64,000 bases of DNA from an uncultured bacterium (GTDB taxonomy: Bacteria > Cyanobacteriota > Vampirovibrionia > Gastranaerophilales > Gastranaerophilaceae), in assembly GCA_902779645.1 (NCBI GenBank), contig CACZCH010000011.1, positions 7,587-71,586 of the forward strand. Reading direction: 5' to 3'. The notes beneath the pieces were generated by a model. The model was not told where the DNA came from, ran no database searches, and saw nothing but the letters and a program-made list of their open reading frames with translations. Shown piece by piece: positions 7,166 to 48,120 of this stretch (the stretch's first letter is position 1; every line of letters starts with the position of its first letter). The translations under genes were made by a program, and so were the position numbers.

Positions 7166-10100
7166 ATGGGAGAGAATATGTTACAAGAAGCTACAAGAGC
7201 GATTAATTCCGCATTTAATAACAGTTTTATAAAAAAACTCAGTCAATATTTGCACGACTGTGTAAGAGAAGAAGTTAAAAGTTCAACTTTCAGAAACCTT
7301 AAAGCCGATAAGGATAACAAGTGGATTTTCTTAAACGAAGAAGATACACTATTTACGCAAGGACTTGATTATTTGAAACTTGAAGGTTCAGATCCTAAAA
7401 TTACAGAACTTATGATTCAAGCCGATACAAGCCAAAAAGATAAATATTTGATATACGGGTATTTGTTTTTGACAGGCAAATCTAAATCAGGCAGAAAAAA
7501 TGAGTTTTTGACTCCGCTTCTTTATGCACCTTGCCACTTGGAAAGAAATGGCGTAAATATTAATTGCATGCTGACTGACGAATTCATTTCTCTAAACACA
7601 GGAGCTCTTACAGCTTTAATGAAAAAATCAGACGACGAAGACGAAACAGAATCACTTCTTGAAGGACTCTTGGATGTTGTACCATCTGTTCCGATTACAC
7701 AAGAAAAATTGGACATATTTTTGACCACTCTAAAATCAATAGTCCCTGATATAGATATCTCGCTTAATGCAGGCGGTAAGGTTGAAGAAGATAATATTAC
7801 AAAAGATTTCTACAATGAAAAAATTGATTCTCAAAATATTGACGAAATTATAGAAGAGGAAGAAAATTCAGCTAAAAAAGCGATAAAACTGGACAAGATA
7901 AACATTACAAATCAGTGTGCAATAATTCTTACAAAACGTCCTTCAGCTACCGCGGGTGTTTTGCATGAATTAACCCAGATTGCTGAAAAACCAAGCGGAG
8001 TATACAGAGAAACTGTTTTAAATATTATAAATGAAGAATATACTCAATCTAAGCCTGTTGATTCTCAGCAGAAAACATTGGAAAACTTTTACCCTGTGAC
8101 ACCTTTGTCACTATCTGATGCTCAGCTGAATGTAATAAAAAATGTCGAGAATTCAAGATTAGTTTCAGTTTTCGGCCCTCCGGGGACAGGTAAATCTCAA
8201 ACAATAGTAAACCTTGCCGCACACTTAATTTCTAACGGAAAAACCGTACTTATTGCATCTCGTATGGATAAAGCGGTTGATGTTGTTGCGGAAAGACTTA
8301 ATGAACTTGGCGCACCGTTTTTGGCACTAAGAGCGGGAAGATTGAATTACCAAAGAGAGCTTTCTATGCAATTGCAAGACTTGCTCGCAGAAAAAATCGA
8401 TCTCAATGAAGGTATGGAAAATTCTATGGTTTGCGATACTTCCGATATGGAAGAACTTTTAAAAACTATTTCCGATATGGAAAAGAAATCAGAAAAGATT
8501 ATTAAGCTTGAAGAAGAATGGACTGGGGTAAATGAAAGAATTAAGCTGGAAGAACCTCAACACCAAAATCATTTCTTCATAAAAAGAATTCTTAAAGGAG
8601 ACGAGATTCAAATTATTGAATCAACTATCAATTCTCTTTCTGTAAACCAAGAAAAATCAGGTTTTTGGGCAGGAATAAAAAATCATTCTTCACTTAATAA
8701 TCTTAAGAAAATTTTGAATATCAAAAACTTTGATGTTAATAACGAAAACCTTTCTATTCTTCAAACAGAACTTGAATTTGCAAAACTTGTTTATGAAGGA
8801 AGAAAAATCGAAACAGAAATCCAAAAAATCGGTAATATCCACGTATTATCAGAACAAATCAGAACCCTAAAACGCAAACAGAAAAAGCTTGCAATAGATA
8901 TTCTTAGAAATAAGCGCAGAGAAGCATTAAAAGGTTTAATGCAAGATCCTGTTAAGCGTCAAAGACTTTTTGTCCACTCAAAATCACTGACAGAGAGAAA
9001 GAAAAATCTCCAAAGCAGACTTCTTGAGCAAGAGGACTTTAAACCGCTTCTTGAAGCTTTCCCATGCTGGTGTGTCACAACTTACGCAGCATCAGGCTCG
9101 CTTCCGCTAAAGCCGGGGTTGTTTGATGTTGCAATTATTGATGAAGCTTCTCAATGCGATATAGCAAGCTGTTTTCCAATTCTTTTTAGGGCAAAACGTG
9201 CAGTAGTAGTAGGTGACGATAAGCAATTACCGCATTTATCATTCTTAGAAAAAGCAAAAGAACAGTCGTTTATGTCACAATACGGAATCGGTGACAGATA
9301 TCAGCTCATGTGGAGATTTAGGACAAATTCTATGTTTGACCTTGCAAATTATTATTCTATGCATCCGGTTCTTTTGGATGAACACTTCAGAAGCTTACCT
9401 CCGATTATAAACTATTCAAACAAAGAATTTTACGGCGGAAGAATAAAAGTAATGCGCAGAAACGACAATTCTAAAAAGGTTCTTGAAACTGTTGTAGTTC
9501 CTGACGGCAAAGTCGATTTTGATGCAACAAGAAACCTTCCTGAAATAGAAGCTCTTGTGAAACGACTCCACGAAATAGTAGTTGAAGATGAAAGAAAGGG
9601 GGTAAATGAAGGAAATCCTCCTGTTTCAATCGGTATAATATCACCGTTCAGAGCTCAAGTTGAACAATTAAAGATTTCAGTTTCAAAAGTTTTATCCGAA
9701 CATATGATGGAAAAGCATCAAATTGAAATTGGTACAGCACACACATTTCAAGGTGACGAAAGAGATATAATTCTTATATCTTGGGCTTATGCAAATAACA
9801 GTTACCCGCAAAGCTTAATATTCCTGCAAAAACCAAACCTGTTTAACGTAGCAATTACGCGTGCACGCTATCAGATGATTAATTTTATATCAAAAGACCC
9901 GAGAGAACTTCCGGAAGGGCTTTTGAGAAGTTATTTGGGATTCTGTTCCGAATATGAAAATAAATACGCACTTGCTCAGTCTGATGAATTTGATGAAAAT
10001 ATTTATAAAAACTCGTTTGAAAAAGAAGTAGCAGAAGCTTTTCGTGCGCTGGACCACAAAGTTACCTGCGGAGTAGATATTGCAGGACTTAGCGCAGACT

Positions 10101-32759: not shown

Positions 32760-34016
32760 TTATTCAGCAACGCGAATTAGACTGTTTACAGTGCAGTCAT
32801 CAAGTTCGTTTACAACTTCTTTAATCAATTTTTCCTGACATTTTTCTGTAATTACAACAATATCTGCGGTAGAATTTTCAGCAACTTCTTTTTGCATAAT
32901 ACTTGCTAAACTAATATTTTTATTAGCACAAATCGTACCGATTTTAGCAATTACACCAATTGCATTCGGAGCAGTAATTGAAATGTAGTATTTGTTAAAA
33001 GTATTATCTATATGAATCGGATTTGCAGTATTTTCATGATGGCATCTCATCATTGGAAGCATATAATCCGTTGTACCGAATTCTGCCTGTATAGCCAAAA
33101 TATCACCTATAACAGAGCTTGCTGTTGGGAATTCGCCTGCTCCGGGACCGGAAAGAACAATATTTCCAATCGGATGCCCGCTAAGCTCGACAGCGTTGGT
33201 AACATAATTTATATGAGCAAGTGTAGATGTTTTTTTGACAAGCATTGGGTGAACTCTAACATCTGCATTCCCATTGTCATCAATGTTAGCACTTGCAATA
33301 AGCTTAATTTTATATCCGAGTTCATTTGCATTTGCCATGTCTTCTTTTCTGACTTTTGTTATCCCTTCTCTGTATACGTTTTCAAGTTTAACTCTTTGTT
33401 TAAACGCAAGCGTAGCAAGCGTTGTAATCTTGTATGCAGCATCAAATCCTTCAACATCGCCTGTCGGGTCTGTTTCTGCGTAACCCAAAGATTGAGCCTC
33501 TTTAAGAACATCTTCATAAGAAGCGCCATCAGAATCCATTTTTGTAAGAATGTAGTTAGTTGTACCGTTTAAGATTGCTTGTATTTTATTAATTTTGTTA
33601 CCCGCAAGAATTGTTTTAATAGGCATAATTATCGGTATACCGCCTGCTATTGCTGCTTCATACAAACAGACTCTATTGTATTTTTCTGCAAGATTAAAAA
33701 GTTCTTCTCCTTTTTTTGCAAGAAGTTCTTTGTTTGCAGTTACAATGTGTTTTCCGTTTTTGATTGCAGTAGAGATGTACTCCCATGCCGGTTCAACACC
33801 GCCTATCAGTTCAACCAATACATCAATAGAAGAATCATTAACTATTTCCATCGGGTTGTCAATTAATATTCCGACTGGAGTTTCAACTGAACGCGGTTTA
33901 TTGATGTTTTTAACTGCTATTTTAACAATTTCAACATTTTGGAAATTTTGTAATGTTTTATAAACACCCGTGCCAACAGTACCGAAACCAATAAGACCGA
34001 TTCTTAGTTTACTCAT
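32760..34016 (-). CDS. hom: Homoserine dehydrogenase with C-terminal ACT domain
   Basis: G.GTVG, VTANK, EAAIAGGIP, NGTTNYIL, DPT.DVEG.DAA.K, GAG..PTAS. Confidence 0.95.
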   Translation of the reverse strand: MSKLRIGLIGFGTVGTGVYKTLQNFQNVEIVKIAVKNINKPRSVETPVGILIDNPMEIVNDSSIDVLVELIGGVEPAWEYISTAIKNGKHIVTANKELLAKKGEELFNLAEKYNRVCLYEAAIAGGIPIIMPIKTILAGNKINKIQAILNGTTNYILTKMDSDGASYEDVLKEAQSLGYAETDPTGDVEGFDAAYKITTLATLAFKQRVKLENVYREGITKVRKEDMANANELGYKIKLIASANIDDNGNADVRVHPMLVKKTSTLAHINYVTNAVELSGHPIGNIVLSGPGAGEFPTASSVIGDILAIQAEFGTTDYMLPMMRCHHENTANPIHIDNTFNKYYISITAPNAIGVIAKIGTICANKNISLASIMQKEVAENSTADIVVITEKCQEKLIKEVVNELDDCTVNSLIRVAE

Positions 34017-34145
34017 AATATTCTCCTGTTAAATAAATAATTTATATTATATAACAAAACTTAGTTCTAACAAAATAATTGACTACAAACTATGTCCATG
34101 ATAAATTGTATTTGCGGTTTAGGCTGTTTGAAAATTAAATAACTT

Positions 34146-34215
34146 GGGTGCGTGGCGCAGTTGGTAGCGCAGTTGACTCTTAATCTCAGGTTTTACAGGG
34201 TTCAAATGCACACCA
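34146..34215 (+). tRNA. tRNA-Lys(CTT), 5' half intact and 3' half degenerate; probable att site / pseudo-tRNA
   Basis: GGGTGCG-TG-GCGC-AGTTGGTA-GCGC-A-GTTGA-CTCTTAA-TC is canonical; downstream the anticodon and T stems no longer pair, only GGTTCAAAT and GCACACCA remain. Confidence 0.75.
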
Positions 34216-34467
34216 CATAAGGATTACAACCAACTTTAACACATTTTTGAAAATAGGGCTGAAACCCTTGATTTTTCGTTGTATTATGTTCAACCGTTAC
34301 ACAATTATTACACAAAAATTTTTAGGAATTTTTTAACATAATTGCAAAAAAATAATGGAAAAAATAGAAAGATTTTTAACTTTGGCAGATAAAAAAATTG
34401 GGTAATAAAAACTTTATTTTTTACTTTTACTTAATACTACATATAAAGAGAAAGTTGTAAAACTTCA

Positions 34468-34704
34468 CTAGTGTACATATTCTTGATTATCATTTGAACC
34501 TTCTGTATCAATAAAGAAGGCATTTATTAAGTCAGCATTTCGCCTGAGTAATTTAATTACAGGTGCTAAGTTGTAACACTCTTCTTTTTCTGGCTGAGTT
34601 TCGCAAAAGTAATCTACAACAACAGCTATGTTATATATGTCATTTGCTAATTTGCTTAGCTTTTTAAACTCTTTTAGTGTAAGATTATATCCAACTTCTT
34701 CCAT
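34468..34704 (-). CDS. Small hypothetical protein
   Basis: 78 aa with AGGAGG SD. Confidence 0.65.
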   Translation of the reverse strand: MEEVGYNLTLKEFKKLSKLANDIYNIAVVVDYFCETQPEKEECYNLAPVIKLLRRNADLINAFFIDTEGSNDNQEYVH

Positions 34705-34791
34705 AAAATGCCTCCTAACTCAAGAGACATCTTACCGCGCAGAATCCAAATTCGCCAACTACCCTATCCCAAATTTTTACATGGGGACATA

Positions 34792-37700
34792 TTATTCTAC
34801 TTCCATAACATTGTCAGTCCAAAGTTCACATTGTTTCATTACTGTTTCAACTGCACCTTGTTCTTCTTCTGGAGGGTAATTATATTTTTTAAGCAGTCTT
34901 TTTACCATCATCATCATTTTTGCTCTTGCAAACTGCTTATTCTGCCAGTCAACAGTTTTATTTCTTCGCAAAGTATCTGTTAATTCTTTCGTCATTGCAA
35001 CAAGTTCTTCATTCTTATAAAAATCTTTTACTGCTTGAGGTCTTGTTAAAGCATCATAGAAAGCAATCTCTTCGTTGTTAAGTCCTAATTCTTCACCTTC
35101 TTTTTGAGCTTCTGAGATTTGTTTAGCAATTTTCATTAACTCTTCAATAACTTCTGCGTTTGTGATTAGCCCGTTTATGTACTTATTCATTATTGCCTGA
35201 ATAATTTCACTAAATTTTTCACTCTTAACAAGGTTTGTTCTTTTGTATATAGAAACCTGTTCAGCAAGAAGTTTTTTCAAGATTTCAACTGCTATATTTT
35301 TCTCTTTCATTTTGGAAATTTCTTCCAAGAATTTAGGATCAAACAGAGAGAACTGTTCTTTTACATCCGAGAACAAATTAATTACACCATCACTCTTAAT
35401 ACTTTGCCTTAAAAGTTCATTGATTCTTTCATTCATTTCTTTTAATGAGATTTTCTTATTACTACCTGAGTTTAAATCTCTCATTACTAAAACTCTTATT
35501 GCTTCAAAGAATGCAGCTTCAATTCTATCATCTTCATCTACTATTGAGGAACAAAGAGATAAAGCTTGGTGTAACATCAACGCTTCTTTTAGGAATGTTT
35601 CTTTTTTATCTTTATAATTTGGTGCGATAATAAAGTTTATGGCTTCTTTTATTGCTCTTGATCTATCTAAATCAGAGCCTGTTTTGAATTTTGAATAATC
35701 GTGTCCGTGGAATAAATCCTGACAAACTGATAATTTTTCTTTGAATTTTGGATAAGCTTGTGTTGAAATATCAGGATTGCCGTAATTGTTTCTATCTCTT
35801 ACTGTGTAATCATTCATTGCTTGTTTTAGAGCAGTTGCTATTCCAACATAATCAACTACCAAACCGCCTTCTTTATCTGCATAAACTCTATTAACTCTTG
35901 CTATTGCCTGCATCAAGTTATGTCCTGCCATTGGTTTATATACATACATTGTAGCAAGAGAAGGAACGTCAAATCCTGTAAGCCACATGTCAACAACAAT
36001 GGCAATTTTTAGCGGACTATCTGCCTTTTTAAATTTGTTAGCAAGTTCTTCTTTATGTTTTTTGTTTCCGATAATTTCACGCCATTCTTCAGGGTCATCA
36101 TTCCCAGAAGTCATTACCACTGCAACTTTTTCTTTTCCTTTTTCGTTCCAATTTGGGCGAAGTTCTAATATCTTATGATAAATCTTTAATGCTATTGTTC
36201 TAGAGTAAGCAACAATCATCGCCTTGCCTGTTAGCAAATGTTCTCTGTTTTCTTCATAGTGCTTGATAATATCATTTACTAATGAATTTATTACATCATC
36301 ATCACCCAAAATTGTTTCCATTTGTCCAAGTTGTTTTTTGCTTTTTTCAACAACTTCAGGGTCAGCATTAAGAGCCATTAGGTCGTATTCTTTATCAATA
36401 AGTGCTAAGGTGTTTTGGTCAAGATTCAGCTTAACAACTCTGCTTTCGTAATATACAGGACGAGTTGCCCCATCTTCAACCGCTTGTGTCATATCGTAAA
36501 CATCAATGTATTCCCCAAAAACTTCTCTTGTGTTTTTATCTTTTTGAGAGATTGGAGTACCTGTAAAACCTATAAAAGTTGCATTAGGTAAACTATTTCT
36601 GATTACTCTTGCTGTGCCGATTTTGATTTTACCAGTTTTTGCATCGACTTTTTCAGTTAATCCGTATTGTCCCCTGTGTGCCTCATCAGCCATAACGATA
36701 ATGTTTCTTCGTTCTGTTAGCGGTTCTTCGGATTCTTCAAACTTTTGCATTGTGGTAAAGATTATGCCGTTTGCCTCTCTGCCGTCCAATAATTCTTTTA
36801 AGTTTTCTCTGCTTTCAGCCTGAACTGGTGTTTGACGGAGAAAGTCCTTGCATTTAGAAAATTGACTGTATAATTGATTATCTAAATCATTTCTATCAGT
36901 CAAAACAACTATTGTAGGACTGTTTAAGGCTTCTTGTAAGAGGTGAGCATAGAATACCATTGATAAAGATTTTCCACTTCCTTGAGTGTGCCAGAAAACA
37001 CCGCCTTTTCCGTCAGTTTCGGTTGCGTGTTTAGTTGATTCAATAGCTTTTCTTACTGCAAAATATTGGTGATAAGCAGCAAGTATTTTTATTCTGTCTA
37101 TGCCGTCTGAGGAAAAACAGATAAAGTTTTTAATAATATCAAGTAATCTCTCTTTCGGGAAAATTCCTTCAAAGAATGTTTCAAAATCTGCAATTTTAAT
37201 GGATTCAGACTTGCCGTCTTTAGTTTTCCATTCCATAAAACGTGACTCGTCAGAAGTAATTGTTCCAGCACAGCTTTTGATTAAATCACTCATAACACAT
37301 ATTGCGTTATAGGTAAACATTGTGGGAATCTCATGCATATAATTTCTGATTTGTCTGTATGCTTCACTTGCATCGGTTTCTTCTCTTGAGGGAGATTTTA
37401 GCTCCATTAAAACAACAGGAATTCCGTTTAAGAAAATTAGAATATCAGGACGTTTTTCGGAATTTTCGATGAAAGTCCATTGGTTAGCGATAATGAATGA
37501 GTTGTTGTTAATGTTTTTGTAATCTACAAGGTAGATAATTGTAGAACGGCTTTCCCCGTTTTCTAAATAAGTTGCGGTGATACCGTTTTGCAAGTAATCC
37601 ATAAATACGGTGTTTTGTTGTGGAATATCACTATTTTCAATATGTTTAAGCTTAAATATGGCATCTTCAATAGCTTCTTGCGGAGCTTTTGGGTTAATTC

Positions 37701-37848
37701 TATTGATAGAATCAAGCAAAATGTCTTCATACAGAGGGCTGTAATAATCATGTTCGACATCATAACCGCAAATGTGGTCATACCCCATTTTTTCAAAAAG
37801 TTCTATTATCGAATTTTCATAACTTTGTTCTGTATAAAGACTTTGCAT
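34792..37848 (-). CDS. hsdR: Type I restriction endonuclease subunit R
   Basis: RPDILIFLNGIP..LMELK, WHTQGSGKS, DEAHR, GFTGTP, VVDMWLTGFD, QAIARVNR; C-terminal DUF3387-like. Confidence 0.96.
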   Translation of the reverse strand: MQSLYTEQSYENSIIELFEKMGYDHICGYDVEHDYYSPLYEDILLDSINRINPKAPQEAIEDAIFKLKHIENSDIPQQNTVFMDYLQNGITATYLENGESRSTIIYLVDYKNINNNSFIIANQWTFIENSEKRPDILIFLNGIPVVLMELKSPSREETDASEAYRQIRNYMHEIPTMFTYNAICVMSDLIKSCAGTITSDESRFMEWKTKDGKSESIKIADFETFFEGIFPKERLLDIIKNFICFSSDGIDRIKILAAYHQYFAVRKAIESTKHATETDGKGGVFWHTQGSGKSLSMVFYAHLLQEALNSPTIVVLTDRNDLDNQLYSQFSKCKDFLRQTPVQAESRENLKELLDGREANGIIFTTMQKFEESEEPLTERRNIIVMADEAHRGQYGLTEKVDAKTGKIKIGTARVIRNSLPNATFIGFTGTPISQKDKNTREVFGEYIDVYDMTQAVEDGATRPVYYESRVVKLNLDQNTLALIDKEYDLMALNADPEVVEKSKKQLGQMETILGDDDVINSLVNDIIKHYEENREHLLTGKAMIVAYSRTIALKIYHKILELRPNWNEKGKEKVAVVMTSGNDDPEEWREIIGNKKHKEELANKFKKADSPLKIAIVVDMWLTGFDVPSLATMYVYKPMAGHNLMQAIARVNRVYADKEGGLVVDYVGIATALKQAMNDYTVRDRNNYGNPDISTQAYPKFKEKLSVCQDLFHGHDYSKFKTGSDLDRSRAIKEAINFIIAPNYKDKKETFLKEALMLHQALSLCSSIVDEDDRIEAAFFEAIRVLVMRDLNSGSNKKISLKEMNERINELLRQSIKSDGVINLFSDVKEQFSLFDPKFLEEISKMKEKNIAVEILKKLLAEQVSIYKRTNLVKSEKFSEIIQAIMNKYINGLITNAEVIEELMKIAKQISEAQKEGEELGLNNEEIAFYDALTRPQAVKDFYKNEELVAMTKELTDTLRRNKTVDWQNKQFARAKMMMMVKRLLKKYNYPPEEEQGAVETVMKQCELWTDNVMEVE

Positions 37849-39338
37849 TAGGCTTTTGCTCCTTTGATTACTTTTAGAGTACTTAATAATTTTGTATCAT
37901 AAACTTTTCTGTCATTTACATAAAAATCAACCTTTTCACCTTGTATAGTTAAATCTATTTTGTTTCTTTGTCCTAGTATGAAAGGATTTTTATTATATTT
38001 AAAAAATCTTAGTCTTCCGTCTATTATTATATCTATTGTAATAGTTCCATCATAAGATTTCCAAATTTTAAATTGAGTTTTAGCGGTTGAACTAGAAAGA
38101 CTGAAAATGAAAGAACCTAATGGGTACTTATCCCAATCTATTAAAGGTGTAAAGAATATATTATTTAATTCTATTTTTGGATTATTATATGGTAATTCTG
38201 GGATGTTATTTATATCTGTATAAACTGTCGGAAATTTAAAATCAAAATCAATATTTTTTCTTGTTTTGCAATTCGGTATTACAAAAAATTGCATGTTTGC
38301 AGTTTGATATATTGAATTTGATATTACAATTGCATTTATTCGTTTGGTAGATCTTTCTAACCAAATCTTTATCTTAGAATAGTTACTATGTATATACTGT
38401 TCATAATTCAAGTTATTATTACAAGGGAGTTGAATATGCAAAAGATTTAATTCATTTTTTATTAATTGCTTTCTTGCCTTATTGATTTCATTATATATTT
38501 GTTTATCAAAATTTATGTTTGGTTTAGATTCTGTTCCCATGAAAGTTAAATTAAAGAAGTTATTAGGTAACATTTCTAATGAGATATGCTGTTCTGAATT
38601 TCCAATATGTATCTCACTACAATTATTATCAATTTTATTAATTTCTACTTCTACATTGTAGTTTGTTATGTAATATTTACCAATGGAATCAAGCTTTATT
38701 AGGTCAATAATGTTTTTTACAACTTGATTAATATCACTTTGATAAAAATTTTCTCCTGTTTTAACCCAGATGCTATATGATTTATTATTCTCAATACAAA
38801 AATTTTGAACTTGTTCTGTTAAAATTTCACAAGCACAATGGTTTTGGATATCATAATCTTCTAAAGATTTACACTCAATATTTATTTTTTTTGTGTTGTT
38901 GTATTTATCATATATTGTGAAATCAGGAATTTTTCCTTTGTTTTGTTCTTCATTATTTATTTGAACTTCGTTTAAATCAGAATATAACCTTGCTGTTTGA
39001 ATCTCAAATGCCGCGGAATAGAATGTATTTTTTTGTAACAAACTATTAATCAACCTTTGTAGATTTGGAAGTTTTTCCATGTCTAATAAATTTAATATTA
39101 TAGTAATAATAAAATGTGTACCGAATGAACACTCTGCTATACCTGTTTCTTTGTTGCGTTCTACATCAAGATTATAAGAAATCCAATAATCAAAAAAAGG
39201 ATGATAATTTCTTCTTCTTTCTTCATTAGACATTGTACGATATGCATCTGCCTGTTGAATAAAATCTTCTCCCAAGAATTCTTCAAAAAGTTTTCTATAG
39301 TTTTCTAAACGCTTTGTATCAATATCAATAATTTCCAT
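37848..39338 (-). CDS. Hypothetical protein with PD-(D/E)xK-like nuclease motif and beta-rich C-terminal domain
   Basis: GKIPDF...NIECKS; TAATG overlap with hsdR. Confidence 0.6.
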   Translation of the reverse strand: MEIIDIDTKRLENYRKLFEEFLGEDFIQQADAYRTMSNEERRRNYHPFFDYWISYNLDVERNKETGIAECSFGTHFIITIILNLLDMEKLPNLQRLINSLLQKNTFYSAAFEIQTARLYSDLNEVQINNEEQNKGKIPDFTIYDKYNNTKKINIECKSLEDYDIQNHCACEILTEQVQNFCIENNKSYSIWVKTGENFYQSDINQVVKNIIDLIKLDSIGKYYITNYNVEVEINKIDNNCSEIHIGNSEQHISLEMLPNNFFNLTFMGTESKPNINFDKQIYNEINKARKQLIKNELNLLHIQLPCNNNLNYEQYIHSNYSKIKIWLERSTKRINAIVISNSIYQTANMQFFVIPNCKTRKNIDFDFKFPTVYTDINNIPELPYNNPKIELNNIFFTPLIDWDKYPLGSFIFSLSSSTAKTQFKIWKSYDGTITIDIIIDGRLRFFKYNKNPFILGQRNKIDLTIQGEKVDFYVNDRKVYDTKLLSTLKVIKGAKA

Positions 39339-39357
39339 TTGTCTGCATCCACTTTGT

Positions 39358-40236
39358 TTAAATTAATTCTTCCGCTTTTCCTTTTGTCCCTTTTATCGTT
39401 TTTAAAAACTCATCTACATTACTTTTTCGTTCTAGGTTGTCTTTTATTAAGACACAGAAAAGCATAAGTTGATACAATTCATCATACCATTTTTCTAATT
39501 CTTTTTCATCAAGGTTAATTATTGTATTTTTATTATCTTTTTTAGTTTTATTGTTATGTCTAATGTGTAAATTATTAAATAGAGCATTTGTTTTATTTAA
39601 AAAGTCATTATATCCTTCAAGTGAAGATGTAAATAGAGGTTCATATTCTCTATATATACTGTTTAATAGATTTCTCTTTTGTTCTAAATCACCTTTTAGC
39701 GATAAGTGGTTGTACATTAAAATAGCAAGAGCTGTTTCTTCTGAAGATATTTCAGCAACTGCTGTTGCAACAGGATTTTTAGGAATTAATAGTACTTTTT
39801 CTTCTTTTTCATTAACATGAATATCGTGATTTATATAATCTAACAATTTTTTCATATTTTCCATTAATATATAAAAATCATCTTTTACATCACAGTCGGA
39901 TTGTTGATAAATGTTGTACTTCTTAACTACCAAATATATTAAATTATTATAATATTCTAAGAGTTTTATACAGTCATCAAAAGAATCTTCTTTAGTATAT
40001 TTAAATTTTATTCCTAAATCTTGTTTAATCTCATCACAATTAAAATAAAAACCTCTTTGTTTCCATGATTTGAACAACATTTCGTCTACAAATTCTTCTA
40101 TTGTATAATTTGTAGAAACAGTGTAACTATCATGATATTCTATTAGATTTATACTAAATAAAAGAATAATTTTATTAACTTCTTTGTATATATCAAACTT
40201 ATTCTTCATTAATGTAAAAATATCTTGTCTAGACAT
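39358..40236 (-). CDS. Hypothetical protein, possible AbiJ/HEPN-like
   Basis: Helical C-terminal domain with FNNLHIRHN; AGGAGG SD. Confidence 0.5.
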   Translation of the reverse strand: MSRQDIFTLMKNKFDIYKEVNKIILLFSINLIEYHDSYTVSTNYTIEEFVDEMLFKSWKQRGFYFNCDEIKQDLGIKFKYTKEDSFDDCIKLLEYYNNLIYLVVKKYNIYQQSDCDVKDDFYILMENMKKLLDYINHDIHVNEKEEKVLLIPKNPVATAVAEISSEETALAILMYNHLSLKGDLEQKRNLLNSIYREYEPLFTSSLEGYNDFLNKTNALFNNLHIRHNNKTKKDNKNTIINLDEKELEKWYDELYQLMLFCVLIKDNLERKSNVDEFLKTIKGTKGKAEELI

Positions 40237-40250
40237 TTATACAAATCCTC

Positions 40251-41516
40251 CTAACTGTTTTTTACATATAATTGAACGGCCTTTTCAACAATATCTTTTG
40301 CAATAATTCTTGAAGAATCTCTATTAATACCTGATAGATAGAGTTCTCTAATTATTAAAGTTAGCATTTTACTTAATATAAATTCTTTTTTATACCAATC
40401 AATACATAAATTATTGAATATACATTGTGCTATTCTTTTGGCCAACACTTTGTCTTCAGACTTAGAAACTATATAGTCAAATAATTCATCTTTAAAATTA
40501 GGATTACCTTCGTTTTCTACCATAATATTTGTATAATAATCCTTATGGTTAGACTGTTTTTCATATCTTTCAAAATCAGGTGCATCAAAAGTCTGTTTCA
40601 TATTTACAGTTTTAATATACCTTAATTGATGCTCTAATTCTGGGAATAGTGTTGATTCATTTATATTGCATAAATTAAGCTCATCCAAAATTTTTTGTTT
40701 ATTTTCACCTGAAACATAGAAAAATTCTTTTTCAAATTCGTCTTTCAAACTTCCTTTACATTTTGTTATAACCCCTTTTTCATCTTCTCCTTTATACGAA
40801 AACATGCTTGGCAATAAGAAGGCACCACTTTGTGCCATTAAACGAATATTATTATTTGTTGGCTGTACAACATATGTAGATTGGATTATGTTTATAAATC
40901 TCTCAAATCCATCTCCAAGCCAATCATTTTTTTCTCTTTCTGTTATTAAATCACTATTATATAGCCGATTTATTACATTTTCCAACGAGTTCTCGTTTTG
41001 TAAATTATACTTTGCTAATTCTGTTACAATTTTTACATACTTATCATCTGAATATACAGGATATGCTTTTTTATAATAAATTAGCCCCCAAGGCTCAAGT
41101 AATTCAATATTATTTTCTTCATCTTCATTTTCTTCTTTCTCTTTAAAATATTCTTCCTCCCCATTAATTTGACAAGCAAAATATAATGCTACTAGTGGAT
41201 TCGTTGTTAAATCTAACAACCTAGTACAAAGCCCATAATGTTGACATTTTGTCATAAGGTCAAAAGTATTGTTAATGGAATTAAATTCTTCAGGGAATTT
41301 TTCTATAGGTTCTTTGAGCAATTGGTGTTCTGAATTAAGCAAGCCCATTCTAAAAATACTTGAATAAATACCCCAATATTCGACTTGTTGTCCTCTAAAA
41401 AAATATTTCAAGGCATAATCTTCATCGTTTTCCCTTATCTCATTAATTTTTTTTAAAAATGACCAAACGGAATCAATTTCATAACCTTCTGACATATCTA
41501 AAGTTTTATGAGCCAT
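40251..41516 (-). CDS. FRG-domain protein
   Basis: FFRGQ, QHYGL.TRLLD.T.NPLVALYFAC, N.RL.AQSG.F, LFPELE. Confidence 0.92.
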   Translation of the reverse strand: MAHKTLDMSEGYEIDSVWSFLKKINEIRENDEDYALKYFFRGQQVEYWGIYSSIFRMGLLNSEHQLLKEPIEKFPEEFNSINNTFDLMTKCQHYGLCTRLLDLTTNPLVALYFACQINGEEEYFKEKEENEDEENNIELLEPWGLIYYKKAYPVYSDDKYVKIVTELAKYNLQNENSLENVINRLYNSDLITEREKNDWLGDGFERFINIIQSTYVVQPTNNNIRLMAQSGAFLLPSMFSYKGEDEKGVITKCKGSLKDEFEKEFFYVSGENKQKILDELNLCNINESTLFPELEHQLRYIKTVNMKQTFDAPDFERYEKQSNHKDYYTNIMVENEGNPNFKDELFDYIVSKSEDKVLAKRIAQCIFNNLCIDWYKKEFILSKMLTLIIRELYLSGINRDSSRIIAKDIVEKAVQLYVKNS

Positions 41517-41518
41517 AA

Positions 41519-42550
41519 TTACACCTCGACCTTATCTATATCTGTTTCATTATTAGACGCGTGCCTTTGGATTTCTAAAATATCACCAATTAGCATATAA
41601 ACGTGCATAAAGCATCTTTCTGCTTCTTCTTTATCTACATTCGCATGAGTTCCTTTGCATGTTTCGTCTAATATATTATCTAATCTTGTTCCTATATATT
41701 CAATATTAGAATTAGTTATTTTATCTAATGTCTTATGCGTAGAATTTTCTTCAATGTAGCATACCAACCTATTAATAAACTGTTCCTCTCCCAAATTTAT
41801 TTCTACTTTTCCTTTTTTAATAGTTTTGTCAGTGGGAGGATATAATTTATCAGCAACTGCCTTTAACATTCTGCGACAAGTCGTTAAAGCATTTGACCAT
41901 TTTTCTGGATTATCATCATTTAAACTATCATATATGGCCGTTAGTTTTTGAGTTTCTTCTGGAAGTATGCTACTTATATAAGAATCTATTCTGCTTTTCA
42001 TTTTTAACCAAATTGATTCAGTTAATGAACTAAATTTTAAATCCATGTATATTTTTTTTACATTGCTATATATAAATCTAGTTCTTTCTGCTAAAAGTAT
42101 TGTATCCTCATTTATACTTGTTAAACGGACTTTTCTTTCACCAGCATTTGTAGGTGGTAATGTTATACTTTGATAAGGATTTGCAGATGATATTGATATA
42201 TTACGGTCATGTGCTTGTTCTAATGCTATCTTATTCGCTTCAATCCTATGTTCAATAGTAGTAATTGCGTAGCAACTCATAACTTCTTTATCATCTGAAT
42301 TAGTACTAACTCTGCCTGCTTTTACACCTAATCGCCATATATCTGGAGCAATTCCGTTTTTACCCTTTGTATATCCACCTGCTTCATATTCAAATATTTT
42401 TTCTAAATCAAATTCATTTACAAGTCTTGCTAACCTACTTGCTTTTAATGCAACGTTTGCCATAGGAAGTCTTGATAATTCAATATCGTCAAGCGTTTCC
42501 TTGGCTAATAGAAAAGCCTCTTCTTTTATTTCTTGATTATCAATATTCAT
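41519..42550 (-). CDS. AbiTii-like N-terminal domain protein with helical (HEPN-like) C-terminus
   Basis: DIEL.......ALKA.RLA.L......E..GY resembles AbiTii; C-terminal A....RR.L..VAD ... KGTH. Confidence 0.65.
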   Translation of the reverse strand: MNIDNQEIKEEAFLLAKETLDDIELSRLPMANVALKASRLARLVNEFDLEKIFEYEAGGYTKGKNGIAPDIWRLGVKAGRVSTNSDDKEVMSCYAITTIEHRIEANKIALEQAHDRNISISSANPYQSITLPPTNAGERKVRLTSINEDTILLAERTRFIYSNVKKIYMDLKFSSLTESIWLKMKSRIDSYISSILPEETQKLTAIYDSLNDDNPEKWSNALTTCRRMLKAVADKLYPPTDKTIKKGKVEINLGEEQFINRLVCYIEENSTHKTLDKITNSNIEYIGTRLDNILDETCKGTHANVDKEEAERCFMHVYMLIGDILEIQRHASNNETDIDKVEV

Positions 42551-42552
42551 AT

Positions 42553-43719
42553 CTACACCTCCACCTTATCTACATCGATTTCACCATTCATGAGTTTGGG
42601 CAAAAGTGTGTCACGGAGTTGGGTTAAACGTGAGTTTTCTATGTCGTTTGCAAATATTTGTTCAAAGAATGGTTCAACAATATTGTTAAATTTTATATTT
42701 ATATCTTTTGTTGCTATTACTACTTCAGAATTTTTTATTTCTGTTGATGACAAATTTACTTGAACACCACTATTAGCTCTTTTCCTTAAGTCGGTAAGGA
42801 AATCTATACTATTAGTAAGTAAATATATGTAAGGATATGATATGCCATAATCATTCTTACAACGCAATAAGCCTACACGCTGGTTTACAATATATTTATT
42901 ATCTACTTCCATCAGTGCAGTATTCCCCAAAATAGCGACATTATCCTTCATGTCAGTCATAGCCATTAATACATCACCTTTTTTGAGAATATATTTTTCT
43001 AAACCTTGAGTTTTATCTATAGGATACCAACTTTTTGTCCCAGTTGGATTAAACCCACCACCTCTGTTGATATGACCTTGTTTAAAAACATCAAAGCAAT
43101 CGCCCTCTGGACTATTTAATAGTTCACTACTCTTGAAAGCGTAGCCATTTGAAAATTCAACAATATCATCAAGTATCCCAACCTGCCAATCTTCAGGCAT
43201 GGTGCCGCCGAAAGATTCAAAGTCTATAAACCAAGATTTAAATATTGCCTGTGCTTGTTGTTCAAGGTTTTTGTTTATGGAGTTGTTTAATTCGATTTTG
43301 TCATCAATCGAACTCAACACCCTCGCAATCTTCCGCTGTGTTTCTAATGGTGGAAGATTTATTTTTATATTATTTAGTATTTCTTGTGTTAAAAGAGGTT
43401 GCCCCGTACCGATACTTCTTTGATTTAGCCTTAATGATTTCAACAAATAGTATATAAATACTATGTCAGACTCAATTTTATTTTTTGCAACTATAGCATT
43501 ATCTGATACCCAACATTTACCTTTTGAATAATATACACTTCCACAATATGCACCTACACGCCCTATGATAGCACATTCTTCATAATTAGTTTCATTAGTA
43601 TAATTTAATATCCCATTACCACCATATACAGGAATAGCACCTTTTTTATCAGGACGTTTTTTACCATTTTTGAAATCTACATATTTTTCTAATTTACACT
43701 CTTTCCAATCAGAGGTCAT
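42553..43719 (-). CDS. hsdS: Type I restriction-modification specificity subunit
   Basis: Two TRDs with conserved PPLETQRKIA..L..IDDKIELN and L.QLRDTLLPKLM.GEI. Confidence 0.95.
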   Translation of the reverse strand: MTSDWKECKLEKYVDFKNGKKRPDKKGAIPVYGGNGILNYTNETNYEECAIIGRVGAYCGSVYYSKGKCWVSDNAIVAKNKIESDIVFIYYLLKSLRLNQRSIGTGQPLLTQEILNNIKINLPPLETQRKIARVLSSIDDKIELNNSINKNLEQQAQAIFKSWFIDFESFGGTMPEDWQVGILDDIVEFSNGYAFKSSELLNSPEGDCFDVFKQGHINRGGGFNPTGTKSWYPIDKTQGLEKYILKKGDVLMAMTDMKDNVAILGNTALMEVDNKYIVNQRVGLLRCKNDYGISYPYIYLLTNSIDFLTDLRKRANSGVQVNLSSTEIKNSEVVIATKDINIKFNNIVEPFFEQIFANDIENSRLTQLRDTLLPKLMNGEIDVDKVEV

Positions 43720-43721
43720 AA

Positions 43722-44423
43722 TTACACCACCATATCTAATTCTTTTGCTGAAAAGTAAGCCCCATCCAATACAACTGATTCCGTATTAGGTTGTTTTTGG
43801 ATAGTTCTAATTATAGTTCTTTTTGCTTCTTGTGATTTTTTCATATCTATATATTTAATTTTTTCGTTATCATCAGGTATTTTCTTCGTTAGATAGCCAG
43901 TGATACAATCTTTTAGCAATTGCAGGGGCCTATCTTGATATGATTCAGTGGTCTTATTTGTTAAAAATTCTACTATCGGAGTAATTAAATCTACTTCAGC
44001 ACTAGGAAATTTTACTATATTAAATTCCTTTACATTTAAATTGATTCCAAAATTTATGTTAAAACAACCTGGTGTTGCAGATAAGATATGTATTTGTAAA
44101 TTATCAGTATCAAATTTAAACAGGTCACAAAAGTTTTCTGCAATTATTCTAAAACTTTGCACAATACTTATAAAATCTTCATCAGACAAACAATTTGCAC
44201 TTGTGTTTATTTTGAAAGAATAAACATTATCTTTAGTAGAATTCTTTTGATTTTGTATTATATGAAATAATCTTTTTACCGCACGAACTAGATTTGTATC
44301 TTCTTCTGATACATGTACAGTAACCATCCTCATACCGTCTAAATAGTCTTGACTATATATGTTAGGTTCTAAATCACTTTGTGAATTCTTTTTTATAATT
44401 TTATTGAATAAATCTTTTAACAT
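43722..44423 (-). CDS. Hypothetical protein embedded in R-M operon
   Basis: 233-aa ORF, AAGGA SD, 2 bp from hsdS start. Confidence 0.7.
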   Translation of the reverse strand: MLKDLFNKIIKKNSQSDLEPNIYSQDYLDGMRMVTVHVSEEDTNLVRAVKRLFHIIQNQKNSTKDNVYSFKINTSANCLSDEDFISIVQSFRIIAENFCDLFKFDTDNLQIHILSATPGCFNINFGINLNVKEFNIVKFPSAEVDLITPIVEFLTNKTTESYQDRPLQLLKDCITGYLTKKIPDDNEKIKYIDMKKSQEAKRTIIRTIQKQPNTESVVLDGAYFSAKELDMVV

Positions 44424-44450
44424 ACTGATTCCTTTGATAATAAGGCTACT

Positions 44451-45242
44451 TTAGAGGTCATTTTCTTCTACCTCCCATTTCTTTTGTACTTGTTCTTTTA
44501 TCTCTATTTCTAATAATGCTTTTTGTTTTCTTTTTAAACCGAAGTCTATAATCCAAGTATTCAGAATCTCATTTATATATTTTAAATCCACTCTTATTGT
44601 TTTTATTTCCTCTACATCATACTTTTCATTAACCTGTGGATCATTCAACATCTCTAAATAATCTTTTTGTGTTTCATCAAAAATCTTTTTAGCACGAATA
44701 TATCCATTAACGACTTCATCCTTGATTAAATTTTCACATTTATAATATTTTACAAGTGCATTATTTATGTTTATCAGGCTTACAAATAGTTTTGCTAAAA
44801 GTTTTACAGTAGATACTTCTATATGTTCTAATTTTTCTATATAAAGTTTTATCGGGTGATCATAATTTGAAATAATATCCTGTTGCTCACAAATGTAATT
44901 TATATCACTATGAACATAAGTTAATATTTCATAAAGCAAGGGGGAATATTGAGTTAAAAACCCATACTCATCAATATTAAAATTTGAGTCGTTTATAGTA
45001 ATAGGAACCATTGATTTTACTTCTGATTCAGTTAAATTATTTATCTCAGCAACTATATTCTCGTGGTGGTATACAAAAACTTTTATCAATACATTGATAT
45101 CGTAGAAAAGTTTAAGTAATTTTGCTTTTTCAATTTCTTTTTGTTGTTTTTCTGCTTGCTTTAGATTAAAGCAATAGGCGCCCCCAGCACCTGCAAAGGC
45201 ACCCGCTAAAGTTGATATGAAGTTACTCCAATCTATACACAT
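44451..45242 (-). CDS. Hypothetical protein with N-terminal TM helix embedded in R-M operon
   Basis: FISTLAGAFAGAGGAYCF segment then coiled coil; ATG directly follows the hsdM stop. Confidence 0.72.
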   Translation of the reverse strand: MCIDWSNFISTLAGAFAGAGGAYCFNLKQAEKQQKEIEKAKLLKLFYDINVLIKVFVYHHENIVAEINNLTESEVKSMVPITINDSNFNIDEYGFLTQYSPLLYEILTYVHSDINYICEQQDIISNYDHPIKLYIEKLEHIEVSTVKLLAKLFVSLININNALVKYYKCENLIKDEVVNGYIRAKKIFDETQKDYLEMLNDPQVNEKYDVEEIKTIRVDLKYINEILNTWIIDFGLKRKQKALLEIEIKEQVQKKWEVEENDL

Positions 45243-46754
45243 CTACTTCACCTCAAAACCTATTACTGAAAGATTCTTCTTTATTTCATCTTGAAGTTCA
45301 TTCGATTTAGCAAACATTTCTGAAAGTTCAGAGGTTAATCGTTTCATTTTATCTTCAAATGGTTCCCCGTCATCTTCCTGATCTTCTATACCAACATATC
45401 TTCCAGGAGTTAGGATATAATCTTGTTTTGCGATATCTTCTGTAGAAACAACAGCACAGAAACCTTTTACATCCTCTAAAGTTCCCTCTTGAAAAGCCGT
45501 AAAAGTATCAGCTAGTTTATTTATATCATCTTCTGTAAAATCTCTATGCTTTCTATCTACCATATAGCCCATTTTACGAGCGTCTATAAACAGAGTTTTT
45601 CCTTTTTGCTTCTTACCCTTTGTGATAAACCATAGAGTTACTGGTATTGTTACACTATAAAAAAGTTGTGTCGGCAAAGCAACAATACCTTCTATCAAAT
45701 CATCTTCTATAATGCGTTTTCTTATCTCACCTTCACCGCTTGTTTGACTTGATAATGCACCATTAGCCAAAACCAATCCAATCTTTCCATTCGGTGCTAA
45801 ATGGTGTATCATGTGCTGGATCCATGCAAAGTTAGCATTCCCTGCTGGTGGTATGCCATACTTCCAGCGAACATCATCTTGTAACTTATCTTGCCCCCAG
45901 TTTGAAAGATTGAATGGAGGGTTAGCCATAATGAAATCAGCTTTCAATGTTGGGTGAAGATCATTAAAGAAAGTATCAGCATGGCTCGGTCCAAAATTAG
46001 CATCAATACCACGAATAGCCATGTTCATTTTTGCCATTTTCCAAGTATCAGCATTGGATTCCTGACCGTAAACAGAAATTCTATCTCTGTTTCCACTATG
46101 CGCCTGCAAGAATTTTACAGACTGAACAAACATACCTCCTGAACCACAACAAGGGTCGTAAACCCTACAATTATCAAATGGTTTCAAAATAGAAACTAGA
46201 GTTTTAACTATGCTTGACGGAGTATAAAATTCACCGCCCTTTGTTCCTTCATAAGCAGCAAACTGTGCTATACAGTATTCATAAGTTCTGCCCAGCAAGT
46301 CCTTGCTTTCTTCTGTATCGTCCATTTTTACATTATTAGTGAACAAGTCCACAACTTCACCTAAAACTCTTTTATCTAAATCAGGCGAGCCATAATTTTT
46401 AGGTAAAACACCTTTAAGAGATTTATTTTCTCTTTCAATAGCAAGCATGGCTTCGTCAATGACTTTGCCAATCTCAGGAGTATGAGCAGATTCAGAAATC
46501 TTGTTCCACCTTGCTTCTTCTGGCACAAAGAAAATGTTTTCTGCCAAATATGCAATCGGATCGTTTTCAAAACCATCACCCTCTGCCAAAAGTTCTTGAT
46601 ATCTTTTATCGAAAACACTTGAAATATATCTAAGGAAAATCAACCCTACAATAACTTTTCTGTATTCGGCTGCAGGAATATGTCCCCAAAGTACACATGC
46701 AGCATCCCACAATTGCTTTTCAAAACCGATATTAGCATTATTTTTCTCTGCCAT
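45243..46754 (-). CDS. hsdM: Type I restriction-modification methyltransferase subunit
   Basis: GEFYTP, YDPCCGSGGM, ANPPFN, NFAWIQH, LTPGRYVG. Confidence 0.97.
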   Translation of the reverse strand: MAEKNNANIGFEKQLWDAACVLWGHIPAAEYRKVIVGLIFLRYISSVFDKRYQELLAEGDGFENDPIAYLAENIFFVPEEARWNKISESAHTPEIGKVIDEAMLAIERENKSLKGVLPKNYGSPDLDKRVLGEVVDLFTNNVKMDDTEESKDLLGRTYEYCIAQFAAYEGTKGGEFYTPSSIVKTLVSILKPFDNCRVYDPCCGSGGMFVQSVKFLQAHSGNRDRISVYGQESNADTWKMAKMNMAIRGIDANFGPSHADTFFNDLHPTLKADFIMANPPFNLSNWGQDKLQDDVRWKYGIPPAGNANFAWIQHMIHHLAPNGKIGLVLANGALSSQTSGEGEIRKRIIEDDLIEGIVALPTQLFYSVTIPVTLWFITKGKKQKGKTLFIDARKMGYMVDRKHRDFTEDDINKLADTFTAFQEGTLEDVKGFCAVVSTEDIAKQDYILTPGRYVGIEDQEDDGEPFEDKMKRLTSELSEMFAKSNELQDEIKKNLSVIGFEVK

Positions 46755-46912
46755 TTTTAACTCCTTAGATAAAATCCCTGGATTTATTCTAGCATGAAAT
46801 AAGCTTATATTGTAGGATTTGTTTAAGCATTAAATAAAAGCAAAACTTGCATTTTGAATTGTTTTAAAAATTTAGTACTAAATAAGCAGTTTAGGCTTGG
46901 GGGATTTTGGTG

Positions 46913-47263
46913 CTAACATTTTTTCTGACTTAGGATTTTCATCTTACAAAGTATAGAACTAAGTTCAGGGGTTGAGTTGGATTTTAATGTTTGTATAGCG
47001 GAGATCTCGGAGTCGGTAAATTCTACTATCTCCTTCATAGAATAGTTTATAAATCCCCAGCGTTTGATTTTTGAGCCTTCATTAACTACATCAACCTGCG
47101 GAAATGCATCTCTTATTGCTGATATCATTCTTTGAGCTGTGCGGACGCAAACGTTAAATTCTACACAAATATCTTTAATACAGATACCTCTTGGTTCTGC
47201 AAGTAACATATGCAATAATTGCATGAAATCGGTCATTCTTGAATATCTAATAGTATCACTCAT
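46913..47263 (-). CDS. Winged HTH protein resembling the N-terminus of WYL-family regulators, WYL domain absent
   Basis: I.DIC.EF.V..RT.QR.I..I HTH_11/DeoR-like; 116 aa. Confidence 0.65.
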   Translation of the reverse strand: MSDTIRYSRMTDFMQLLHMLLAEPRGICIKDICVEFNVCVRTAQRMISAIRDAFPQVDVVNEGSKIKRWGFINYSMKEIVEFTDSEISAIQTLKSNSTPELSSILCKMKILSQKKC

Positions 47264-47270
47264 TTTTCAC

Positions 47271-47897
47271 CTATAAATTCTCTTTATACATTTTTACTAA
47301 TTTATAGAAAGAAGTTGGCTTTAGTTTTAGTTCTGCCATAGCTTTTCTTGCTGTAATCAAACCATTTTGCCATACTTCATAAATATTTTTCCAATCCTCA
47401 GGATATTTTATCTTTGGTCTGCCTAAGTGTTTACCTTTTTCTTTTGCAATCTTAATTCCTTCTGCTTGTCTTTGTTTGATAAAAGCTCTTTCCTGTTCTG
47501 CTACATAACTCAACAGTTGCAAGACGATATCAGAAATTACTTCGCCGATAAGCCCATCTGTCTTTGTAGTATCAAGGATTGGCATATCAATTACTCTAAT
47601 GTGAGCTTTTATGTCTTTTACTATCTCACGCCATTCTTCACAAATTTGTTTGTAGTTTCTGCCAAGACGGTCAATAGACTTGATTACAAGGATATCTCCT
47701 TCTCTAAGTTGAACCTTTAGAGCTTGATACTGCGGACGGTCAAAATTTTTACCTGAGCACTTATCAACAAAAATATCTCTTTCGTTAATTCCCATATCCA
47801 ACATAGCTTCAAGCTGTCTGTCTTCGTTTTGATCGGTCGTGGATACTCTACAGTATCCAAAAGTTTTTATGTTCGTATTAGCCAAGATTGTCTCCAT
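47271..47897 (-). CDS. Serine recombinase (resolvase/invertase family)
   Basis: GYCRVST.DQN..RQ, SGK...RP, V.SIDRLGRN, R.RQ.EGI..AK..G...GRP, C-terminal HTH. Confidence 0.95.
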   Translation of the reverse strand: METILANTNIKTFGYCRVSTTDQNEDRQLEAMLDMGINERDIFVDKCSGKNFDRPQYQALKVQLREGDILVIKSIDRLGRNYKQICEEWREIVKDIKAHIRVIDMPILDTTKTDGLIGEVISDIVLQLLSYVAEQERAFIKQRQAEGIKIAKEKGKHLGRPKIKYPEDWKNIYEVWQNGLITARKAMAELKLKPTSFYKLVKMYKENL

Positions 47898-48120
47898 ACT
47901 TGAGTTTTAGTCTTTTTATTGCTTACTGTCTTGACACTCTCGCATTAAACGGATATCGCTCACGCTTTCATCCTCTGCTCGAGTGTCGCTCTCAAGTATA
48001 ACGCGCTATTCGTAAAACTCAAGTCTCTTTGTGAACATTCGCAAAATTTTGTAGCAAAACTTTACGAACAGTTTTGGGGGTAAAAATTTAATGTTCTTAA
48101 AGGTACGCTTTTACGAAGAA
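47896..48120. promoter_or_regulatory. Resolvase promoter / putative res site
   Basis: Repeated TTCG(T/C)AAAA and TTTACGAA half-sites; TTGAGT-16-TATACT on the minus strand; three ACTCAAG motifs. Confidence 0.55.

Follow-up and report, generated by a model that had tools for sequence, protein, structure and literature searches.

In a stretch of 64,000 nt from an uncultured Gastranaerophilaceae bacterium (contig CACZCH010000011.1, positions 7,587 to 71,586; the whole stretch is called the window here), we found that the 3′ end of hsdS, the specificity subunit gene of a type I restriction-modification (R-M) operon, is present for a second time as the end of the following gene, which encodes an AbiTii-like protein. 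This repeat is probably a recombination scar, left when two variants of the R-M operon were joined out of register, and no dedicated cassette-insertion machine would be involved. Read in this way, it is a clear and well-documented example of a type of event that is already known, in a type of locus that is known too. The operon is a single, tightly packed unit on the minus strand (34792-46754) in the order hsdM, o263, o233, hsdS, AbiTii-like, FRG, o292, o496 and hsdR, as identified with Pfam and PADLOC (Table 1). With hsdM, hsdS and hsdR accompanied by six co-oriented passengers and gaps of only -1 to 27 nt, it belongs to the type I R-M operons in which defence genes are embedded. Among the passengers matching defence models were AbiTii (PDLC02334) and PDC-S15 (PDLC04927), the latter being the FRG-domain gene.

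The HsdS protein ends in ...GEIDVDKVEV and the AbiTii-like protein in ...NETDIDKVEV, and positions 41519-41542 and 42553-42576 are identical at 21 of 24 nt. This likeness, already pointed out in the initial annotation, is present in the sequence and extends further, to 30 nt. In an alignment from the stop codon backwards, the AbiTii-like gene agreed over its final 30 nt with the hsdS ends of the window and of the related loci L003, L034 and L039 at 24-26 positions, and the 12 nt preceding this tail agreed at just 2-4 of 12. The AATAAT at 41549-41554 is a microhomology or breakpoint zone. Allowing up to three mismatches, a 20-mer of the tail was found at just two places in the window, and two matches were obtained in none of 100 shuffles; an 18-mer, allowing up to one mismatch, located those same two places only in the whole 2.06-Mb genome. 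We also scanned 22 related loci for flanking repeats, by comparing the stop-anchored windows on the two sides of each operon gene (~95 genes). Against a null of operon junctions between unrelated genes, with Shine-Dalgarno (SD) motifs included, the hsdS/AbiTii repeat had p ~0.003. The repeat of 24-36 nt exceeds both chance and SD similarity, and the 30-nt match agrees with the earlier proposal that the hsdS-like end of AbiTii is the footprint of an insertion and not an SD likeness only. The proposal that the repeat retains the stop codon and the SD sequence for FRG, by which coupling is preserved, was also confirmed. The same proposal spoke of passenger genes in the plural, and only one passenger in the window has an hsdS tail. 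The hsdS genes of L003, L009, L034 and L039 end in the same tail as that of the window, irrespective of the next gene. Within the operon family, two unrelated types of hsdS C-terminal tail were observed: ...LLPKLMxGEIDVDKVEV, compared in the window, L003, L009, L034 and L039, and the longer ...STDKLLFxxE of L005, L007, L011, L014, L017 and L018. AbiTii and FRG were each found behind both types.

Comparison with its relatives clearly indicates that the hsdS-like tail of the AbiTii-like gene was acquired, because the tail is confined to the window lineage and one 92%-identical relative. In the 120 AbiTii-like homologues listed, a conserved core ends in GDILEIER and is followed by short, variable and unrelated tails, the close relatives being ~336 aa long. 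Among these homologues, the hsdS-like end N.E.D.DKVEV was found only in the window protein and in P0001 (92% identical; L003/L004), and the other ~118 have other ends. GAAATTGATGTAG, the first (5′) half of the AbiTii tail in L003/L004, does not differ from the hsdS end immediately upstream. The two tailed AbiTii genes have two derived characters in common, an RH.SN linker and a GTC valine codon (GTG in hsdS), which point to one ancestral event for the window and P0001.

We consider that the window combines two operon orders, because both of them exist in other genomes. In the donor arrangement (L039/L040), hsdS (LLPKLMNEEIDVDKVEV, then stop) is directly followed by AbiTii, with 84% DNA identity and the native end ERQINNEEQ, and then by hsdR. 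The order hsdS-AbiTii-hsdR with native AbiTii tails was also found in L005, L007 and L041, and the native tails across these five loci are ERQINNEEQ, ERLKNKEVV or EEQTEEKEN, each followed by the stop. In the recipient arrangement (L034), hsdS is 91% DNA-identical to that of the window and FRG begins 1 nt past the hsdS stop; hsdS directly followed by FRG also occurs in L023 and L017. The hsdS tail before FRG is a single copy in L034 and L023, and two copies in the window (24-26/30 nt).

The join itself can be located closely. Native AbiTii homology extends to AATAATGA, and the sequence switches from AbiTii to hsdS at AATAATGA(A), a sequence similar to the native end of AbiTii (ATTAATAATGAGGAG) as well as to the end of hsdS (ATGAATGGTGAAAT). 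The microhomology at the join, AATAATGA in AbiTii against AATGGTGA in hsdS, is short and the sequences have diverged, which does not fix the exact base. Three features of an insertion with target duplication were found: a direct repeat that is derived from the target and single in uninserted relatives, a donor with its own different end, and microhomology at the join, with other breakpoints in the independent event described next.

A second event was found in L034, where FRG is flanked by a direct repeat of the hsdS 3′ end (86/97 nt). The second copy of this hsdS end forms the end of a 56-aa open reading frame (ORF; 9285-9455) located between FRG and a 280-aa gene. This ORF begins with ~25 residues (MTRQDIFTLTQSKYNIEKEFNKIVL) from the N-terminus of the o292 family, which usually accompanies FRG, and its last ~30 residues are the hsdS C-terminus, making an in-frame chimera with its right-hand join inside o292 (codon ~25) and 88 nt before the hsdS stop. 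From these comparisons the L034 duplication appears clearly independent of that in the window. There is no fixed recombination site, because the breakpoints of the window and L034 differ: 30-36 against 88 nt of hsdS, and the AbiTii end against codon ~25 of o292. A defined junction repeat, through which cargo had been proposed to enter and leave, does not agree with two independent events of different breakpoints, nor with the cargo of the 22 operons, most of which has no flanking repeats. In both cases the reading frame is kept across the join and terminates at the original hsdS stop, with the next start codon 1-2 nt further on.

For the sequence of events, the pathway of recombination and a selection for coupling we infer the following. 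A variant of the order hsdS-AbiTii-hsdR (L039/L040 type) would have been joined with a variant of the order hsdS-FRG-o292... (L034/L023 type). On the left side the exchange would have gone through homologous hsdS sequence; on the right side an illegitimate join at the short microhomology described above would have connected the AbiTii 3′ end, 2-3 codons short of its own stop, to the resident hsdS at a point ~30 nt ahead of the hsdS stop. The product would be hsdS-(tail)-AbiTii-(tail)-FRG. Such a process would be homology-facilitated illegitimate recombination (HFIR), also named insertion with target duplication, and it would require DNA uptake by the host (natural transformation) or another route supplying linear donor DNA. 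The second copy of the tail may persist because it holds the SD of FRG and a stop 2 nt before the FRG ATG, and only in-frame joins which keep this piece of SD and stop would leave the downstream genes translationally coupled. The in-frame chimera of L034 fits a selection for termination beside the next start, two events being too few for proof.

Several points weigh against this reconstruction. The selection for coupling is read from two in-frame events out of two, for which chance gives 1 in 9. We found no donor-recipient pair close in time, and the FRG of the nearest "empty" locus, L034, is only 66% protein-identical; therefore the event is old, and the loci compared stand in for the parental forms. 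Mapping of the left junction is not possible. The identical product would also arise if AbiTii had been fused to a second hsdS copy further downstream by an in-frame deletion.

The initial annotation had read the repeats as the mark of a cassette-insertion mechanism. The insertion footprint and the preserved coupling stand, and a dedicated junction site, a role of the resolvase and an ongoing exit of cargo are not supported. An exchange of cassettes might also do without a recombinase, which we consider unlikely. The hsdS tail with its SD would then be a portable homology arm, and AbiTii with its tail would be moved by RecA crossover within the 30-nt repeat and lost precisely between the two copies; direct repeats of 30 nt are able to support deletion. 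The window and L003 have hsdS-tail-AbiTii-tail in common and differ directly after it, with FRG in the window and a 251-aa gene in L003, and therefore one or more later exchanges had their end at the tail or beside it. However, the derived GTC codon in both second tails restricts any crossover to the final ~11 nt of the tail or to sequence outside it, and exchange by homology is disfavoured because ~11 nt are too short for it.

The distribution of the repeat also speaks against such exchange. Two copies of the tail (up to three mismatches) were found only in the window's genome among the 401 genomes of the order; a scan of contigs with a 24-nt degenerate tail pattern, which was too narrow, gave one match, the ordinary hsdS end of L009. 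No empty site was found in 17-18 metagenome contigs from other samples encoding an identical FRG or hsdS. All these contigs of the strain have the same gene order and keep the insert, against an ongoing exit of cargo. In the scan of the 22 operons most cargo genes had no flanking repeats, which also answers in the negative the proposed check that cargo boundaries in related hsdS loci fall at the repeat. Only 3-4 of the ~95 genes were above the 99th percentile of the null, namely the AbiTii case, the 177-aa gene of L009 and a 13-nt match in L021. A candidate third scar in the window, in which the end of o292, LKTIKGTKGKA, was compared with that of o496, LKVIKGAKA (13/17 nt by eye), was rejected, as it was not among the top-scoring flanks. 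It is likewise doubtful that the ends of hsdS, and also of hsdM and hsdR, which encode the next ribosome-binding site act as portable adaptors, making tailed passengers self-contained coupled cassettes that could be moved or precisely lost without a recombinase. If this were true, type I R-M operons would be integrase-free, integron-like arrays of defence genes across phyla.

An in-frame deletion, which we regard as quite improbable, would start from an ancestor with a second hsdS downstream of AbiTii, for example in stacked operons, and would have removed everything between the AbiTii 3′ end and a point 30 nt ahead of the stop of this second hsdS. The product would be just what is observed, the chimera of o292 and hsdS in L034 could equally be a deletion product, and loci with two hsdS-like ORFs exist, such as L012. 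However, no relative with the order hsdS-AbiTii-...-hsdS-FRG was found among ~30 loci, and stacking followed by deletion needs an extra step.

A site-specific cassette system, in which the neighbouring serine recombinase or another enzyme would insert and excise cargo at a defined site as in integrons, is largely refuted and we regard it as very improbable. A resolvase gene does lie upstream of hsdM, and L034, where the hsdS tail is duplicated as well, has one of 81% identity beside it. However, a tblastn search of ~25 related loci, all equally variable, found a homologue in L034 only and none in the other ~23. Hence the resolvase does not appear linked to cargo variability, and a part for it in the insertion is not supported. 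The breakpoints differ between the events, the right join of L034 lies inside a gene, and the other cargo borders have no site in common. At the junctions no attC-type hairpin was detected (81-nt windows, both strands; minimum free energy -1.0 to -2.3 kcal/mol, z +0.9 to +1.3), and no dyad symmetry for a serine-recombinase switch was seen in the repeat. An integron integrase was not found, the small serine resolvase being the only such gene nearby. We found no inverted hsdS repeats of the shufflon kind in 34000-48000, where the sole extra piece of hsdS is the direct copy of 30-36 nt.

It was also observed that the resolvase homologue of L034 (14564-15175) is located downstream of hsdR and not upstream of hsdM, which gives the same cyclic order. 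We might speculate from this arrangement that the R-M island is a circularly permuted mobile unit.

Convergence or chance, by which similar ends would come only from a strong SD encoded ahead of the next start codon, is hardly credible: many junctions in these operons do encode SD motifs in the last codons of the upstream gene, but for the repeat of 24-36 nt it is refuted by the length of the similarity (30 nt, far past the SD), by the shuffles and the comparison with SD-bearing junctions given above, by the AbiTii relatives without the tail, and by the 5′ half of the L003 tail, identical to the hsdS of its own locus.

For a shorter match convergence is accepted, since the 12-mer GGTGTAATTATG is of the SD-driven kind. 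The initial annotation had taken a 12-mer common to 41514-41525 and 43717-43728 (CATAATTACACC) as a shared junction; the exact match stands and the role as a scar does not. This 12-mer comprises only an SD core, a stop, a 2-nt spacer and ATG, and, allowing up to one mismatch, at least two matches were obtained in 8 of 100 shuffles, hence it is weak evidence. All eight of eight o233 homologues end in ...E[LM]D[MLV][VM]V, and L036 and L037 have an identical 21-nt o233 tail ahead of a different hsdS start. An origin of the 12-mer from hsdS was thus ruled out: it consists of the tail native to o233 family members, followed by stop, spacer and ATG.

The 5′ border of hsdS follows the logic of its 3′ end, with another short repeat (ATGACCTCTRA, 9-11 nt) flanking o233. 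Its upstream copy is the old hsdS start, which now forms the last codons and the stop of o263. In L005, L007 and L009 there is an overlap between the tail of o263 (...WEAPENDL) and the start of hsdS (GAAAATGACCTCTRA), and in the window the working hsdS start is located 700 nt downstream of the leftover in o263. A 200-aa gene of L034 retains the leftover ATGACCTCTRA ahead of an inserted PIN_12 gene, and the 177-aa gene of L009 is flanked by 24/27-nt copies of the hsdS-start junction. The gene before hsdS or hsdR ends in the SD and start of that next gene (...NDL from ATGACCTCTAA, ...KCKD from ATGCAAGGACTAA), and therefore the borders of the modules lie upstream of the ribosome-binding site of the next gene.

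Table 1. Genes of the R-M operon, its neighbouring recombinase and the repeats at the hsdS borders (positions in the window).
Feature	Position	Strand	Remarks
Serine recombinase (resolvase family), upstream of hsdM	47271..47897	-	PF00239 at 2e-28
hsdM	45243..46754	-	PF02384 at 7.7e-110
o263, passenger of unknown function (263 aa), between hsdM and hsdS	44451..45242	-	
ATGACCTCTAA, leftover copy of hsdS start at o263 3′ end	44451..44461	-	o233 now between o263 and hsdS
o233, 233 aa, unknown function	43722..44423	-	tail ...ELDMVV native to o233 family
ATGACCTCTGA, functional hsdS start, second copy of the 9-11-nt repeat flanking o233	43709..43719	-	
hsdS, 388 aa, type I specificity subunit, type-1 C-terminal tail ...LLPKLMNGEIDVDKVEV and stop	42553..43719	-	PF01420 at 1.3e-37; PADLOC Specificity_I at 2e-70
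Repeat copy 1, native hsdS 3′ end (core 42553-42582 and AAT 42586-42588)	42553..42588	-	SD GGAGGTG, stop TAG, 2 nt ahead of AbiTii ATG
AbiTii-like gene, 343 aa, probable inserted passenger with hsdS tail replacing native 3′ end	41519..42550	-	PF18864 at 1.9e-6; PADLOC AbiTii at 1e-8
Repeat copy 2, hsdS-derived tail fused in frame to AbiTii (core 41519-41548)	41519..41554	-	SD GAGGTG, stop TAA, 2 nt ahead of FRG ATG
FRG-domain / PDC-S15 gene, 421 aa	40251..41516	-	PF08867 at 3e-18; PDC-S15 at 2e-132
o292, passenger	39358-40236	-	recurs beside FRG in L023; truncated in L034
o496, passenger	37848-39338	-	
hsdR	34792..37848	-	PF04313, PF18766, PF11867

In the 22 related Gastranaerophilales type I loci (L010-L026, L034, L036 and L041), the set of cargo genes differs in nearly every genome. 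The recurrent modules included Fic/RhuM directly after hsdM, pairs of NTase_sub_bind and NTP_transf_2 (in tandem twice in L024), PIN_12, o263, o496, and FRG with o292. Single-linkage clustering of the proteins merged unrelated families and was used for gene order only, not for family counts. L012 (G144:C5, 956-4700) contains a split or duplicated hsdS (198 + 390 aa) and a truncated FRG fragment (154 aa), with no hsdR within 17 kb, and probably represents a decayed copy. In the FRG protein, the C-terminus (aa 356-415) showed a weak match to PF11867, the HsdR C-terminal domain (E 1.3e-3), and the PDC-S15 model conversely matches aa 903-1007 of HsdR; from these matches, the FRG protein might dock on the methylase core in the manner of HsdR.

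Insertion with long target duplication of R-M-linked DNA was reportedly described by Nobusato et al. in 2000. It is documented for R-M genes, with repeats of 46 bp in Haemophilus (Furuta et al. 2010, PMC2853133). As in those cases, the insert here is bracketed by direct repeats of tens of bp which are single in the uninserted relative, and no transposase or integrase is implied. In those cases, however, a whole R-M system was inserted at an unrelated chromosomal site (PMC2853133), whereas here a single passenger lies inside an R-M operon. The duplicated target here is also the coding 3′ end of hsdS, and its second copy is fused in frame to the passenger.

HFIR was proposed for the effector-immunity arrays of type VI secretion systems and for the displacement of Rhs C-termini (Kirchberger et al. 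2017, PMC5361080). A conserved upstream gene likewise serves there as the homologous anchor, the other end being illegitimate, and successive events stack modules and leave orphaned ends. There, the former effector end is pushed out and immunity genes accumulate, whereas nothing is displaced here, and the piece retained here is the tail of the upstream gene with the ribosome-binding site of the next gene.

In integrons, cassettes are recombined by IntI between attC and attI, and the window resembles them in promoterless passengers of one orientation behind a fixed gene and in repeats at the cassette border. Unlike integrons, it has no IntI, no attC-like hairpin and no common border site, and the breakpoints vary.

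PrrC is embedded in the EcoprrI type I R-M operon. Defence genes embedded in a type I R-M operon are also known from TgvAB of V. cholerae VPI-2 (PMC11411939), and such embedding has been used as "guilt by embedding" (Payne et al. 2024, bioRxiv 10.1101/2024.01.29.577857). The window has the same layout of hsdM...hsdS...hsdR with co-oriented passengers, here PDC-S15 (FRG) and AbiTii-like. Those papers dealt with the content and function of the embedded genes, whereas here an insertion junction is readable. In a search of Payne et al. for terms (bioRxiv 10.1101/2024.01.29.577857), "recombination" and "hsdS" were not found, and the sole passage there on origin is the idea of a "genomic sink".

The discovery of new immune systems now draws on defence genes embedded in type I R-M operons, and the route of entry of these genes is barely discussed. 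In the window an entry event is readable almost base by base, with both parental orders surviving, a join at microhomology, and a retained SD with its stop-start spacing. The retained piece explains how operon function survives an insertion and how passengers come to bear foreign C-terminal tails. For annotation, it should be considered that the last 9-11 residues of the AbiTii-like protein are foreign to its family. Non-hsdS genes with hsdS tails, and chimeric mini-ORFs, may serve as markers for the flow of cargo between operons.

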